Of a stretch of DNA of 64,000 nucleotides, positions 59,155 through 64,000 are shown piece by piece. A program made the position numbers and the translations under genes. Where the stretch lies: NCBI GenBank assembly GCA_902826885.1, contig CADEGL010000008.1, forward strand, positions 10,819 to 74,818, in the 5' to 3' direction. This DNA comes from an uncultured Alphaproteobacteria bacterium (lineage in GTDB: Bacteria > Pseudomonadota > Alphaproteobacteria > CADEGL01). Under the pieces are notes generated by a model. That model was not told the origin of the DNA. It saw only the letters and a list, made by a program, of their open reading frames with translations, and did not search any database. Each line of letters begins with the position of its first letter. Within the stretch, counting starts at the first letter, position 1.

Positions 59155-60102
59155 TTACAGGCTCGTCACCCCGCCGCCCACTCCGTGCCGCTTAAACACC
59201 TGCAACAGGTCGGCCAAGAGCGCGTCGCGCTTTTCCTGGATCTCCGCCATGCCGCGCCCACCCATCTGGCCTTCGCACTCCGCGATCAGCCGCATGCCCA
59301 GCTCCTCCGGCGACGTCCCTTCCGCCGCATCGGCAATGGCCTTGGGGAAATGCTTCACGAAGCCGCGCATGCCGGTCGGCCCGCCTGCCAGGTGATAGGT
59401 CATGAAGGTGCCCATGAAGGCCCAGCGCATACCGATGGAATGGACCAGCGCGTCGTCGATCTCCTTGGTGCCGGCGACACCCGTGGCGAAGCAATGCACG
59501 GCCTCCTTCCACAAGGCGGCCTGAAGCCGGTTGCCGATGAAGCCTTCGATCTCGCGCTCCAGCTTCAAGGGCTGCATGGAGATGGCGCGGTAGAACGCCA
59601 TGGTCGCGTCGACCGTCTGCGCCGTCGTGTTGGGCCCCGCCACCACTTCGACCAGCGGCATCAGATAGACCGGATGGAACGGATGCCCGACCAGGAACCG
59701 CTCCGGAATTTTGCATTTGGTTTGAAGCAGCGAGGGCACGAAGCGCGAGGTGGAGGACGAGATGATCGCGGTCTTGTGGACGATCGCGCCCAACGCGCCG
59801 AACAGGTCGATCTTCAGATCTTCGCGCTCGGGCGCGCATTCCTGGATGAAGTCGGCATCGGCAAGGGCGCCGAGATCAGTCGCGAAGCGCAATGCGCCCG
59901 GCTTCTTCGCGGCGTCGCCATAGGCCTTCGCCAGCAGAGGCCGCGCCCGCTCGACCGCGGCGCGCAAGCCGGCCTCGGCCGCCGGGTTCGAGTCTTGCGC
60001 GATGACATCGTAGCCATGGGCCAAACAACGCGCGGCCCAGCCGGAGCCGATCAGCCCCGCGCCGATGATCCCGATGGTTTTGATGGTTCCGGACACTGAC
60101 AT
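59155..60102 (-). CDS. L-carnitine dehydrogenase family protein (paralog of 17183-18142)
   Basis: IGIIGAGLIGSGWA, DADFIQECAPE, HPERFLVGHPFHPVYLMPLVEV, GMRWAFMG. Confidence 0.85.
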   Translation of the reverse strand: MSVSGTIKTIGIIGAGLIGSGWAARCLAHGYDVIAQDSNPAAEAGLRAAVERARPLLAKAYGDAAKKPGALRFATDLGALADADFIQECAPEREDLKIDLFGALGAIVHKTAIISSSTSRFVPSLLQTKCKIPERFLVGHPFHPVYLMPLVEVVAGPNTTAQTVDATMAFYRAISMQPLKLEREIEGFIGNRLQAALWKEAVHCFATGVAGTKEIDDALVHSIGMRWAFMGTFMTYHLAGGPTGMRGFVKHFPKAIADAAEGTSPEELGMRLIAECEGQMGGRGMAEIQEKRDALLADLLQVFKRHGVGGGVTSL

Positions 60103-60229: not shown

Positions 60230-60910
60230 ATGAGCGAAGACCAGACCATGCCGCTTCAGGCGGTCGTCATTCCCGTGACACCGCTGCAGCAGAATTGCTC
60301 CCTCTTCTGGTGCACCAAGACCATGAAGGGCGCCTTCGTCGATCCGGGCGGGGAGATGGACAAGCTCCTGGCCGCGGCGAAGGACGAGAACGTTACGATC
60401 GAGCGCATCCTGGTGACGCACGGCCATTCCGACCATGCCGGCAACGTGGCCGCCATCGCGCGCGATTTGGGCGTGCCGGTGGAAGGACCGCACGAGGACG
60501 ATCTGTTCTGGATCGAGCGCATCCCGGATTCGGGTAAGCGCTATGGCATCGACCGGGCGGAGTCGTTCATTCCCGACCGCTGGCTGAAGAACGGCGATAC
60601 GGTGACGGTCGGCGCGCTGACGCTCGGCGTCCACCACTGCCCCGGCCACACGCCGGGCCATGTCGTGTTCCACCATCCGGAATCGAAGCTGGCTTTCGTC
60701 GGCGACGTGCTGTTCCAAGGCTCGATCGGCCGCTGCGACCTGCCGCGCGGCAATCAGCGCGACCTGCTGGTCTCGATCCGCGACCGGCTGTGGCCGCTCG
60801 GCTCCGACGTCACCTTCGTACCCGGCCACGGCCCGCTGTCCACCTTCGGCCACGAGCGGCGCAACAATCCGTTCGTCGCCGACCAAGTGCTGGCGCGGAT
60901 GGCGCTTTAA
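60230..60910 (+). CDS. MBL-fold hydrolase (hydroxyacylglutathione hydrolase GloB-like)
   Basis: THGHSDHAGN, HCPGHTPGH, ...VPGHGP... Confidence 0.85.
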   Translation: MSEDQTMPLQAVVIPVTPLQQNCSLFWCTKTMKGAFVDPGGEMDKLLAAAKDENVTIERILVTHGHSDHAGNVAAIARDLGVPVEGPHEDDLFWIERIPDSGKRYGIDRAESFIPDRWLKNGDTVTVGALTLGVHHCPGHTPGHVVFHHPESKLAFVGDVLFQGSIGRCDLPRGNQRDLLVSIRDRLWPLGSDVTFVPGHGPLSTFGHERRNNPFVADQVLARMAL

Positions 60911-60920
60911 CCGCGCAGGG

Positions 60921-62006
60921 CTATTTCACGTCGTGAAGCGGCGTGCCCAGGATAGGCAGTATTTCCAGGTTAGCGCCGTAGATTCGCCCTTGCGCCGCGG
61001 TCAAGGGACAGGCCGCCTTTGAAAAGCGCCGAGCCTTCTCCAGCAGCGGAAGGAAATTGCGCTCGACCTTGGACACGAACGCGTCGTATTCGTCCGCTTC
61101 GATAACTCGGTCCTTGCGCCAACCGGGCCAATCCGCGCCCCGTTGACGCGCCTTCGCGAACGCAGCCTTCATCTCCGTGACGGCCGCGTCGACCTCGCCG
61201 ATCTGAGCCGCATTCCAGGCCCAACCCAAGCGTGGCGCCAGGAATGCCAAGGGCTCCTTCTCGATGAAATCGTCGGTGTAAGCCTCGCGCCACCCTTCCA
61301 TGTGCATCCGAAAGTAGTCGGGATGGTCTCGGCAAGCGGGGGCGTAACCGCCGTCGCGCCAAACGAGGAATGTCTTGGGCGTGACGAAACACGCGCCGCA
61401 CTCTCCATAGTTGTAGAGATTGCCCATATCGGCGGCGAGCAGGAACAAAACCTTGTCGCTACCTGGCACGAAGCCAGCATTCGTGATGTTGCCGTAGCGC
61501 TTCGGCGTGATGTCCTTAGGTTTGTCGCCCAAGCGGATAATTCGCACGCCGTCGGCAACGATCAACGAGCCACCAGCCGCCACATCGATAAAAAGCGTCG
61601 CCACGCCGTCGCCGAAAACATCGTGCCCCGTCGGGACGATGAAGCTGATTCCACCGACGGAGAGCCCATAGACGAACACCGCGGCGGGGTCGGCGCTTTC
61701 ACGGTTTTGGATATGGTGAATCTCCAGAAAACTCGTGCCCGTTTCCGCCGCGCCCCAGGTGGTTACGAGATACGTCGGGCCGCTGGCGTTCCGAAAGAGG
61801 AGGTATTCCTTCAAGAAGCGCGGCGCCCGCGGTGCATAGAGCTTATTCAGCATTCGCGGCAGCCAATCCGGCTCCTTGCCGGCCGGATAGACCATAGGGC
61901 CGGGGGCCTTGTCATAGGCCCGGTTTCGAAACGGGTTTTCGTCGTCGGCAACGGCCGGCGTCGCCGCTGCCACAAGCAAGGCGAAGACCCAAACCAACGC
62001 TCTCAT
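60921..62006 (-). CDS. Secreted hypothetical protein with conserved Cys pairs (paralog A)
   Basis: Signal peptide MRALVWVFALLVAAATPAVA. CGACF, APACRD, CPLT. About 45% identical to 62149-63228. Confidence 0.6.
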   Translation of the reverse strand: MRALVWVFALLVAAATPAVADDENPFRNRAYDKAPGPMVYPAGKEPDWLPRMLNKLYAPRAPRFLKEYLLFRNASGPTYLVTTWGAAETGTSFLEIHHIQNRESADPAAVFVYGLSVGGISFIVPTGHDVFGDGVATLFIDVAAGGSLIVADGVRIIRLGDKPKDITPKRYGNITNAGFVPGSDKVLFLLAADMGNLYNYGECGACFVTPKTFLVWRDGGYAPACRDHPDYFRMHMEGWREAYTDDFIEKEPLAFLAPRLGWAWNAAQIGEVDAAVTEMKAAFAKARQRGADWPGWRKDRVIEADEYDAFVSKVERNFLPLLEKARRFSKAACPLTAAQGRIYGANLEILPILGTPLHDVK

Positions 62007-62028
62007 CGAAATCCCCGGTTTGGCGTGG

Positions 62029-62144
62029 TTGCTCAGTTCCGACGTCACCTTCGTGCGTGGCCATGGTCCGCCATCCACCTTCGGGCACGAGCGGTGCAGC
62101 AACCCATTCGTGGCCGGCGCGGTACTGGCGCGCATAGCGCTCTA
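62029..62144 (+). pseudogene. Relic of the 3' end of the MBL hydrolase gene, duplicated together with the paralog gene
   Basis: Aligned by eye, about 80% nucleotide identity to 60796-60910. It translates to ...SDVTFVRGHGPPSTFGHERCSNPFVAGAVLARIAL*, versus ...SDVTFVPGHGPLSTFGHERRNNPFVADQVLARMAL*. Confidence 0.6.
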
Positions 62145-62148
62145 GGCA

Positions 62149-63228
62149 TTAAGGCACATCGCGAGACGGCGACGGCGGTATCATCTGGAAAGGCTTTGAA
62201 GACCCCGAGAGCGCGCGCCCCGTCGTCAGCGGACATTGCGATTTTGCGTGACGCTGCGCTTCCTGCAGCAGGGGAAGAAACTCTTTTTCGTAGTTTGCAA
62301 GTTCTGCTTTGTATTCAGCGGAAGTCGGGGGAATCCGACCCTCCCAGATCGGCCAATTCGTTCTGCGCCGCCGCGCCTCGGCGATCGTGTCACGATAGAC
62401 CCGCATCGCCGTGGGAATGTCGCCGGCTTGGATCGCGTCCCAGATTCCACCCATCCGCCTAACCATAAAATTTTGAAGGCTGTAAGGCTCCTCGCCATCG
62501 CTTCGTTGCCAAAAGGATTTCATGGAGGCCCGATAGAACTCGGCATTGTCGCGGCAGGCCGGCGCGTAATGGCCATTACGCCATGCCAAGAGCATCTCTG
62601 GCATGATGTAACAGACCCCGCACGTGTCGTATGAAAACTTCTTATCAAGATCCTTGGTCAGCAAGATGAGCGTCTTGCCGTCGTTCGGAAAGGCGACTCG
62701 CGCCACATTGCCGAACTGCCCGGGCGTAATGTTCTTCGGCACATCGCCCAAGCGGATGATGAGAACGGTTTGATCGTCATCCGAAGAGCCACCGGGTGAG
62801 GCCAGCACGAACAGCACTGGGACCCCATCGCCAAAGATGTCATGCCCGGTCGGGACGACAACCCACACGATGTCGCCCCCATATCCCTCCAAATACTTCG
62901 CGCTCGGATTGCCGACTTTATTCTTCTCGATGCGGTGAATTTCTATGACGCTGTCGAAGTCATCTCCGTACCATTTCGTCACCAAATAGCTCGGGCCGCT
63001 ATCACCACGGAAAAGATAGTGCCGGTATAAACTGCGAGACATCCTTGCAGACTGAAGCTTATCCAGCATTGCTGGAAGCCATGCTGGCTCCTCTTCCGCG
63101 CGATACACCATGGGGCCGGGCAGTTCTTCGTATTCCCGGTTCCAATTGTTGTAATCGGTAAGATCGAAGGCAGCCGCGGGCGCCACCATGGCGGCCAGGA
63201 AGGCGAAAACCAGAAATACCGCTCTCAT
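62149..63228 (-). CDS. Secreted hypothetical protein with conserved Cys pairs (paralog B, lower GC)
   Basis: Signal peptide MRAVFLVFAFLAAMVAPAAA. CGVCY, APACRD, CPLT. The 5' leader ccggggatttccATG is duplicated from paralog A. Confidence 0.6.
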   Translation of the reverse strand: MRAVFLVFAFLAAMVAPAAAFDLTDYNNWNREYEELPGPMVYRAEEEPAWLPAMLDKLQSARMSRSLYRHYLFRGDSGPSYLVTKWYGDDFDSVIEIHRIEKNKVGNPSAKYLEGYGGDIVWVVVPTGHDIFGDGVPVLFVLASPGGSSDDDQTVLIIRLGDVPKNITPGQFGNVARVAFPNDGKTLILLTKDLDKKFSYDTCGVCYIMPEMLLAWRNGHYAPACRDNAEFYRASMKSFWQRSDGEEPYSLQNFMVRRMGGIWDAIQAGDIPTAMRVYRDTIAEARRRRTNWPIWEGRIPPTSAEYKAELANYEKEFLPLLQEAQRHAKSQCPLTTGRALSGSSKPFQMIPPSPSRDVP

Positions 63229-63351
63229 GGAAATCCCCGGACGCCATGTTCGGCCTTAACGTCCGAAGATTTTGGGGCGAGCCCAAGGCCCGCGACAATG
63301 GCGGGACAAAAAAAATTCCTTCCATGATTTCGCCACGATCCTGAGTTGGAC

Positions 63352-64000
63352 CTACCGGAACGCCTCGATGTGCTCCTTCTCATTTCCGTATGGCCCTTTG
63401 ATCCTCGCTTGGATCAGGGCATCCCGAAGCATCGCGCCATATCCCGCACGTTCGAGAGCTCGGATCGCGGCGATGGATTGAGGTCCGACGATCTGTCCCG
63501 CTTGATAGGTCTGCAACCCCAGCCGGGCCGCCTCGCCGTCTTTGCCGAGTTCCGTGATGACAGCACCGAGCGCCTTGCCGACCCTCTGCGCGCCGCCGGT
63601 TCGCCCTTCACGGAAGAGAACGTCCGCGACGGCCGCCGCGGTGTTCCAATCGCCAATCTCGTTCAGAGCCTCCATCCCTCCGGCCTCCTTCAGCGCGCCA
63701 TTGAGATAGCTGCGATACACGGCAGCCACCTGCGCATGGCCGAGGTCTTTTGGATCGTTCGGCAAGCCGGCTAACGCGCGATCCTCTTTTTTCAGATCGC
63801 GAAGCGTGCTCGACATAATACCCGCGAAAGCGCTGCTATCCGGGTTCTTCTTCATACCGCCCTCGGCCGCGAAGATACGGCCATAAACGTGGCGTTCGGT
63901 GTCCGTCACGCCAGGCAGGCGTGCAACAACATCGTTGAATCGTACCCAATGATCTCGTACGCCCGGTACATCCTTCTTTCCGGCAGGCGGCTCCGAAACC
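63352..64000 (-). CDS. Hypothetical protein, 5'-truncated by window end (weak resemblance to GH108/peptidoglycan-binding N-terminal motif)
   Basis: The frame stays open to position 64000, so the GTG at 63909 is not necessarily the start. ...EGGMKKNPDSSAFAGI... is loosely similar to EGGYVNDPDDPGGxTxxGI. Confidence 0.4.
   Translation of the reverse strand, partial: VSEPPAGKKDVPGVRDHWVRFNDVVARLPGVTDTERHVYGRIFAAEGGMKKNPDSSAFAGIMSSTLRDLKKEDRALAGLPNDPKDLGHAQVAAVYRSYLNGALKEAGGMEALNEIGDWNTAAAVADVLFREGRTGGAQRVGKALGAVITELGKDGEAARLGLQTYQAGQIVGPQSIAAIRALERAGYGAMLRDALIQARIKGPYGNEKEHIEAFR

Follow-up and report, generated by a model that had tools for sequence, protein, structure and literature searches.

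Two diverged alleles of a secreted-protein gene beside a decaying MBL gene fragment: a probable case of allele capture in an uncultured alphaproteobacterium

A scenario of homology-facilitated illegitimate recombination was proposed for orphan immunity arrays in T6SS (type VI secretion system) clusters of Vibrio cholerae and for the displacement of Rhs C-termini (PMC5361080; PMC3240628), with a precedent for a module being displaced by this route while the downstream gene is retained (PMC5361080). Here we describe a two-gene array at the right end of a 64,000-nt stretch of DNA from an uncultured alphaproteobacterium (contig CADEGL010000008.1; hereafter the window, to which the coordinates refer), covering the pieces 60,230–63,228. 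Two genes of one unnamed secreted-protein family, A and B, lie there in tandem, and between them stands a fragment of the 3′ end of an MBL-fold hydrolase gene (hereafter the relic), the intact MBL gene being located next to A. B does not represent a recent copy of A. We consider it probable that B is an anciently diverged allele that was captured beside A, together with the tail of a donor's MBL gene, by homology-facilitated illegitimate recombination.

The locus resembles the T6SS and Rhs/contact-dependent inhibition (CDI) arrays in several respects. The gene upstream of B, a GH108-like (muramidase-like) gene, has a constant N-terminus and unrelated alternative C-terminal modules. The secreted-protein gene downstream of it exists in deeply diverged allele classes, which are exchanged among relatives. 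The incoming module would stand upstream, with the resident gene kept and shifted, and a stranded 3′ gene fragment would mark the event. Unlike in those arrays, however, the neighbourhood of the locus gave no match to a secretion system, a toxin domain or a defence model, the downstream gene varies independently of the C-terminal type, the stranded fragment derives from a housekeeping neighbour, the MBL gene, instead of an effector, and distant members of the family occur in non-phage contexts. The resemblance is one of the mode of array formation, and not of membership.

The recombination process itself has reportedly been described in naturally transformable bacteria, in work that PMC5361080 cites and attributes to de Vries and Wackernagel in 2002, Prudhomme et al. 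in 2002, and Meier and Wackernagel in 2003 (see also PMC3240628). Like the products of that process, the present array would have a homologous side and a non-homologous joint, with loss of the DNA in between (the type I C-terminus of the GH108-like gene), and a short GC-rich microhomology may exist at the joint. Unlike in the described cases, the mechanism is read here from the end product only.

Separate ancestry of genes A and B

The two units are colinear and arranged head to tail, each with 120 nt of MBL 3′ end, a spacer of 3–10 nt and a minus-strand gene for a secreted protein with four cysteines. A repeat search returned a direct repeat of 120 nt (60790–60909 and 62025–62144, 79% identity), and weaker colinear patches of 71–78% identity run through genes A and B with a start-to-start spacing of 1216–1235 nt. 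A blastn search of the window with the MBL 3′ end recovered the relic at E = 1.3e-24, and the tblastn comparison of A with B gave E = 6e-78. A sequence-only reading of this DNA had already described the tandem two-unit architecture, which our analyses uphold with minor corrections to its coordinates and percentages. Its estimate of about 80% nucleotide identity for the relic is close to the measured 78–79%. The strong divergence that it reported for the two proteins is also real, although its figure of about 45% has to be lowered to 40–42% protein identity. The lower GC content that it saw in copy B is likewise borne out: 0.564 in B versus 0.612 in A overall, and 0.67 versus 0.75 at third codon positions (GC3). 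The GC content of B is below that of A at codon positions 1 and 3, and a sliding profile falls to 0.54–0.56 across 62450–63350, while the surroundings lie at ~0.64.

Our comparisons revealed that B has an ancestry separate from that of A. The B protein is 39–43% identical to A and to every ortholog of A alike. In the tree, which was built by neighbour joining only, with 300 bootstraps and nine distant family members as the root, 71% of the bootstraps group the orthologs of A to the exclusion of B, which is basal to all of them. A placement of B as sister to A, or to A plus the protein P0002, appeared in 0 of the 300 bootstraps. Had B split from A after P0002 did, its identity to A should clearly exceed that to P0003, whereas the observed identities are 40% and 42%, respectively.

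The divergence of the genes points in the same direction. Between A and B, the nonsynonymous divergence (dN) is 0.57 and the synonymous divergence (dS) is ~1.8, which is saturated; the resulting dN/dS of ~0.3 is like the family-wide value of 0.2–0.3, these being NG86 estimates. Positive selection cannot raise dS, and selection at the protein level is unable to bring synonymous sites to saturation; no overall sign of positive selection was found between A and B. The two genes differ at ~40% of codon positions 1 and 2 and at ~60% of third positions.

The relic is in codon register and in frame with the MBL gene, and ends in a TAG stop where the MBL gene has TAA. It differs from the resident MBL gene at 12.5% of codon positions 1 and 2 and at 40% of third positions, and the differential divergence between relic and genes pointed out by the sequence-only reading is thus confirmed. 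The 26 differences are distributed 4/6/16 over codon positions 1/2/3 (binomial P = 0.003), as in a coding sequence. Its identity to the resident MBL 3′ end is 78–79%, and that to eight orthologous MBL 3′ ends is 76–82%; the relic is thus equidistant from all MBL lineages and not particularly related to the resident gene, with which its longest identical run is ~17 nt. Its dS to functional MBL 3′ ends is 0.40–0.87, within the range among orthologs (0.10–1.01), and 0.74 in the comparison of the two units. Its dN to functional copies, 0.12–0.16, exceeds the mean among orthologs (0.04) by about 0.1. Thirteen changes are found in the relic alone, spread 3/4/6 over the three codon positions, and seven replacements affect residues that are invariant in nine functional MBLs, such as PGHG to RGHG. 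The relic therefore diverged inside a working MBL gene and then decayed by roughly 0.09–0.11 changes per site since its truncation. A copy made in situ and immediately neutral predicts at most ~9 third-position differences, and the observed 16 (P = 0.02) are suggestive against it over these 120 nt.

The functional MBL genes explain why the relic looks conserved. Orthologs share 93–98% amino-acid identity with a dS of 0.25–0.41, the C-terminus is a near-invariant protein sequence across nine functional copies, and the last 120 nt are 81–96% identical between lineages. The relic seems conserved because the MBL gene evolves slowly and because the fragment was cut off comparatively recently.

At the other end of the relic, a remnant of the A leader of ~16 nt (CCGGGGATTTCG before the ATG) abuts the relic directly. 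When eight ortholog upstream regions were compared, the similarity to the closest one, that of locus L006, stopped ~16 nt before the A start codon, and the similarity to MBL stops at 62026. A CCGG at the junction, shared with the MBL gene at 60782–60785, is a possible microhomology.

Mosaic flanks and cassette exchange among relatives

The two sides of the array have different affinities. The A side (gene A, spacer and MBL gene) is closest to L006 at 84–92% identity, and the B side matches only L004, at 81–93%. On the B side, the leader upstream of B and the first 60 nt of B, which encode the signal peptide, are 87–93% identical to L004 (5838–6060), while the mature B protein is only ~40% identical to the L004 protein. 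This type II leader is shared solely with L004, and the upstream sequences of other lineages are unrelated to it. Beyond the leader, the C-terminal open reading frame (ORF) of the GH108-like gene has 81% amino-acid identity to the C-terminal 217 amino acids of its L004 counterpart, while BLAST detected no similarity between it and the type I C-termini that eight other lineages carry.

The leader motif CCGGGGATTTC[CG]ATGAGAGCG is common to both copies, as the sequence-only reading had noted in counting it as part of the duplicated unit. Its CCGGG[GA][AG]T core, however, stands upstream of all eight orthologs examined, and the motif is therefore an ancestral feature and no mark of a duplication. 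The high identity of the leader and the start of B to L004 contrasts with the neighbouring coding DNA, which is ~79–85% identical. The leader, which gave no Rfam match over 63229–63351, includes a T8 run and, after it, the hairpin CCCGCcattgtcGCGGG. A conserved 5′ untranslated region or promoter element is one possible reading of it, and a tract exchanged recently is another.

In the GH108-like gene, a constant N-terminal module of ~190 amino acids, 73–85% conserved in all lineages, is joined to one of two unrelated C-terminal modules: type I, with GH108 and PG_binding_3, and type II, with only a weak GH108 match (E = 0.022 in Pfam for the ORF in the window; 284 amino acids in L007). Examples are found in L002 (4667–5935), L004 (4653–5837), the window (63352–64000) and L007 (1–1344). 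The N-terminal module could serve as the anchor of a recombination event; the window ends at 64000. In the lineage of the window, the gene is split into two ORFs (L007 1–396 and 490–1344), and it is also split in L013.

Relatives carry a single unit. One family gene and one MBL 3′ end were present at every other recovered locus (nine distinct orthologous proteins), including the closest relative, L006, whose protein is 84% identical to A. Among the loci sampled, two family genes with two MBL 3′ ends were seen solely in the window and in the Logan assembly L007 (ERR3089240), which recovers the order B-relic-A-MBL with 99.97% identity over 3384 nt and possibly derives from the same reads as the window. 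The gene order in relatives is Phage_Bbp19, a 278-amino-acid phrog_3742 protein, the GH108-like gene, the A-family gene, the convergent MBL gene and 3HCDH. Relative to MBL, gene A stands where all relatives have their single family gene, which the GH108-like gene precedes there. A B-type allele or a type II leader was not found elsewhere in protein searches, GTDB genomes, IMG/VR and JGI metagenome contigs; the GTDB search returned only two A-type loci, and the JGI contigs were searched by protein patterns and the exact leader 25-mer.

Table 1. Features at the right end of the window
Feature	Coordinates	Strand	Description
3HCDH	59155–60102	minus	3-hydroxyacyl-CoA dehydrogenase
MBL gene	60230–60910	plus	intact MBL-fold hydrolase, 226 amino acids, GloB-like; last 120 nt (60791–60910) form repeat copy 1
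Gene A	60921–62006	minus	secreted protein of 361 amino acids, unnamed family, allele class 3
Junction	62007–62025	none	19 nt; from direct reading of the sequence and comparison of ortholog upstream regions
Relic	62026–62145	plus	final 39 codons and stop of an MBL gene; a decaying pseudogene fragment
Gene B	62149–63228	minus	intact, 359 amino acids, same family as A, sole known member of class 5
Leader of B	63229–63351	minus	intergenic, 123 nt, type II
GH108-like gene	63352–64000	minus	muramidase-like; C-terminal ORF with type II module, running past the window end

Exchange of this part of the locus is seen in other lineages. L004 and L013 share 91% identity over 2.9 kb on the left, up to the boundary between the N- and C-terminal modules of the GH108-like gene, and 89% from the MBL stop codon onward. 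In between, no alignment is possible in the GH108 C-terminus, and the A-family gene reaches only 67% identity (57% in amino acids), with a dS of 1.05 compared with 0.10–0.23 in the flanking genes. The sharp breakpoints delimit a cassette of ~2 kb (L004 4988–7083; L013 2890–4930) with a history unlike that of its flanks. More generally, the same genome pairs have a dS of 0.1–0.6 in Bbp19, the 278-amino-acid gene, a 600-amino-acid gene and 3HCDH, and 0.23–0.41 in MBL, versus 0.9–1.5 in the A-family gene between allele classes. The A-family gene thus behaves, as judged from these alignments, like a swap-prone cassette between the N-terminal part of the GH108-like gene and the MBL 3′ end.

We recognised five allele classes in the A family, with B as the only member of its class. 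Class 2 stands behind a type II module in L004 and a type I module in L018, and type II precedes class 2 in L004 and class 5 in the array. Since allele class and GH108 C-terminal type are thus not linked, a specific effector–immunity pairing was rejected.

Origin of the array

The mosaic flanks, the separate ancestries of B and A, the coding-type divergence and decay of the relic, the single copy in relatives, and the cassette exchange in other lineages can be joined in one account. DNA of a related lineage would have entered the cell, carrying the type II GH108 C-terminus and its leader, followed by allele B and the final ~120 nt of the MBL gene of the donor. It would have recombined homologously in the conserved part of the GH108-like gene, while its other end would have joined illegitimately ~19 nt upstream of the start codon of the resident gene A. 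The resident type I C-terminus and the intergenic region would thereby have been lost, and gene A would have been shifted downstream instead of being replaced, leaving the 120-nt MBL fragment stranded in the space separating B from A. Until then, that fragment would have been kept similar by purifying selection as part of a working MBL enzyme, and its decay would have begun only with the event. The whole would amount to an allele replacement gone half way. We infer the recombination mechanism and the identity of the incoming unit, as well as the transcription of B and A together with the operon upstream of them.

Several points weigh against this account. No single-copy B-type allele was found anywhere searched, and the donor is unsampled. 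No breakpoint marking the homologous anchor was located on the GH108 side, and the CCGG at the junction is short and ambiguous. The relic is only 120 nt long, which leaves the codon-position and dN/dS arguments with modest power (P ~0.003–0.02), and in a tree made by neighbour joining only, long-branch attraction could exaggerate the basal placement of B. Finally, the choice of B over A as the putative newcomer depends solely on the lower GC content of B.

The other explanations fit less of the evidence. The sequence-only reading favoured a tandem duplication in situ of the MBL 3′ end and the adjoining gene, followed by accelerated or diversifying evolution of B. The direct colinear units with a period of ~1.22–1.235 kb, the leader motif common to both copies and the intactness of both genes agree with it, and head-to-tail units with a same-family gene in each are what an ordinary tandem segmental duplication with subfunctionalised paralogs looks like. 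Here, unlike in such a duplication, the copies are not each other's closest relatives, neither in the proteins nor in the relic, and the parts of the unit are discordant in divergence and lineage affinity: neutral divergence is unequal along the unit (dS ~1.8 between A and B, 0.74 in the relic), and the 5′ flank of B has its own affinity. The identity of B to A does not exceed that to P0003, B groups with A in none of the bootstraps, the second copy is absent from the closest relative and from all other sampled lineages, and a dN/dS of ~0.3 with saturated dS contradicts the proposed acceleration. We see very little chance for this origin. If the full unit of MBL and A-family gene had instead been duplicated in an ancestor, with most of the second MBL gene deleted late and the B unit lost elsewhere, the coding-type divergence of the relic and the basal position of B would be accounted for; direct repeats would ease the loss of one unit, and a tandem pair of family members with 33% identity does exist in the distant genome L022. 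Such a history requires a loss in every other sampled lineage with the A type always kept, and a deletion ending exactly ~19 nt before the A start codon, although the GH108-like gene precedes A in relatives. It also leaves unexplained both the 87–93% match of the B leader and signal peptide to an A-clade gene of L004 and the cassette exchange between L004 and L013, and we hold it to be decidedly unlikely.

The sequence-only reading had also considered selection on the relic, which could be kept as a promoter, terminator or RNA element for A or B; alternatively, gene conversion could have homogenised it. The relic lies in the 142-nt spacer between B and A, a possible place for an A promoter or a processing site, and it is closer to its counterpart than the two genes are to each other. 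Yet a scan of the relic revealed no promoter-like or terminator-like signal and no Rfam match, the 4/6/16 codon periodicity is not expected from a DNA or RNA element, its dS lies within the ortholog range, and seven residues invariant in functional enzymes have changed. Gene conversion is opposed by the relic being no closer to the resident than to foreign MBLs and by the shortness of the identical runs (~17 nt at most). Maintenance of the relic in either way is highly improbable. An assembly chimera of two strains, one with A and one with B, joined through their common MBL 3′ end, is conceivable in a metagenome-assembled genome, where a shared repeat can mislead assemblers. However, the relic is only 79% identical to the resident copy and shares no k-mer longer than ~17 nt with it, the truncation junction is non-homologous, the relic carries pseudogene-type changes, and a second assembler produced the same structure; we regard a chimera as scarcely credible.

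A broader possibility is that the A-family gene is a hypervariable locus, whose deep allelic lineages are older than the divergence of the hosts and are held by frequency-dependent selection, the cassette being exchanged with, or beside, the variable C-terminus of a phage-derived muramidase-like protein. This seems unlikely to us. If true, B-relic-A would be the first step of an orphan array, in a system that has not been described, and the periplasmic CxxC family would have a role in some antagonism, in which its members could, for instance, inhibit or partner the muramidase or be targeted by phages or competitors.

With allele capture as the preferred account, the array is an ordinary kind of bacterial genome mosaic, in which the capture leaves a stranded gene fragment. 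A conserved relic beside diverged paralogs need signal neither selection on the relic nor rapid evolution of the paralogs, and such a pattern can be the footprint of a half-completed allele replacement. The stranded MBL fragment would date the event and point to a close relative as the donor. In addition, the comparisons delimit a recombination hot spot of ~2 kb in uncultured Alphaproteobacteria, flanked by a muramidase-like gene of phage origin and a housekeeping gene. The hot spot and the four-cysteine family are moderately interesting by-products, and in themselves reflect ordinary bacterial genome plasticity.

The four-cysteine family and the neighbouring genes

Genes A and B belong to an unnamed secreted four-cysteine family that is newly delimited here, with cluster representatives of which ~12 are close and 115 distant, and with no Pfam family. 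Neither protein matched any Pfam, NCBIfam or PHROG model, and no significant match was found among PDB sequences or known folds; with no PADLOC matches either, an assignment to a defence system was rejected. Among 5.8 billion proteins, A has about ten relatives, all from uncultured Alphaproteobacteria (84, 65, 64, 61 and 54% identity for the top ones), and B retrieves itself at 100% and a next best match at 42%. The 115 distant members came from a profile search of 1.8 billion representatives. Ten of them, looked up by cluster, were unnamed or annotated as hypothetical protein, and another ten showed no significant family when scanned against Pfam.

The sequence-only reading of the proteins as secreted, cysteine-containing and without an assigned function agrees with our results. 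At the sequence level, there is a Sec-type signal peptide ending in AxA, a CxxC motif and two further conserved cysteines. The cysteines C203, C206, C225 and C333 (A numbering) are invariant in 10 close members; in a wider alignment of 39 members, C225 never varies, and at least 90% of the members keep C206 and C333. B retains all of the residues that are invariant across the family. In the AlphaFold2 (AF2) model of A (pLDDT 79), the signal peptide is followed by a domain rich in beta structure and by a helical, TPR-like C-terminal domain. The proteins thus appear, on a loose reading of this model, to be Sec-exported to the periplasm, with a partial propeller-like beta domain followed by the TPR-like helical domain, and their likeliest role, again loosely, may be that of a binding partner in the cell envelope.

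The MBL gene is a clear member of Lactamase_B (PF00753; E = 4e-32, 112 bits against a gathering cutoff of 22.7). Its score with TIGR03413 (hydroxyacylglutathione hydrolase), 87 bits, is below the cutoff of 200.8, and the gene is therefore not called a GloB equivalog. MBL and A are convergent, with their stop codons 10 nt apart (60908–60923), and no terminator-like structure was seen between them; the gap between the relic and B is 3 nt. The tight stop-to-stop spacing also occurs in relatives in which the two genes abut, while a ChaB-family gene intervenes in L004 (7086–7289) and L005 (6721–6924). In L018 (2604–3083), a gene for a 159-amino-acid protein with a signal-peptide-like N-terminus is inserted between the GH108-like and A-family genes. 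These small genes are further insertions at the recombination hot spot.

The phage-like genes form an island of ~7 kb between alanine racemase and MBL, exemplified by L019 (3700–11083), whose synteny is kept across lineages. It includes Bbp19, the phrog_3742 or protease-like protein of 278 amino acids, the GH108 endolysin-like gene, the 600-amino-acid protein, which the opposite strand encodes, and several small ORFs, and no integrase domain was found in it. The island looks like a domesticated or decayed prophage module; no relevant literature on Bbp19 was found. The array shares with att-site duplications the direct repeat of a gene 3′ end, the intact gene and the adjacent phage-derived island (Bbp19, phrog_3742 and the GH108 endolysin-like gene). 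Unlike in those duplications, only a single gene of 1.1 kb lies between the repeats, the ~7-kb island has no integrase, and relatives have no second MBL fragment, and a phage att-site duplication was rejected on these grounds.

Distant members of the family (L021 8001–9059; L022 8001–10120) are located between a Peptidase_M32 gene and a SURF1/cytochrome c oxidase operon, a non-phage context. The members in L022 are the tandem pair with 33% identity mentioned above, and divergent tandem pairs thus recur in the wider family.

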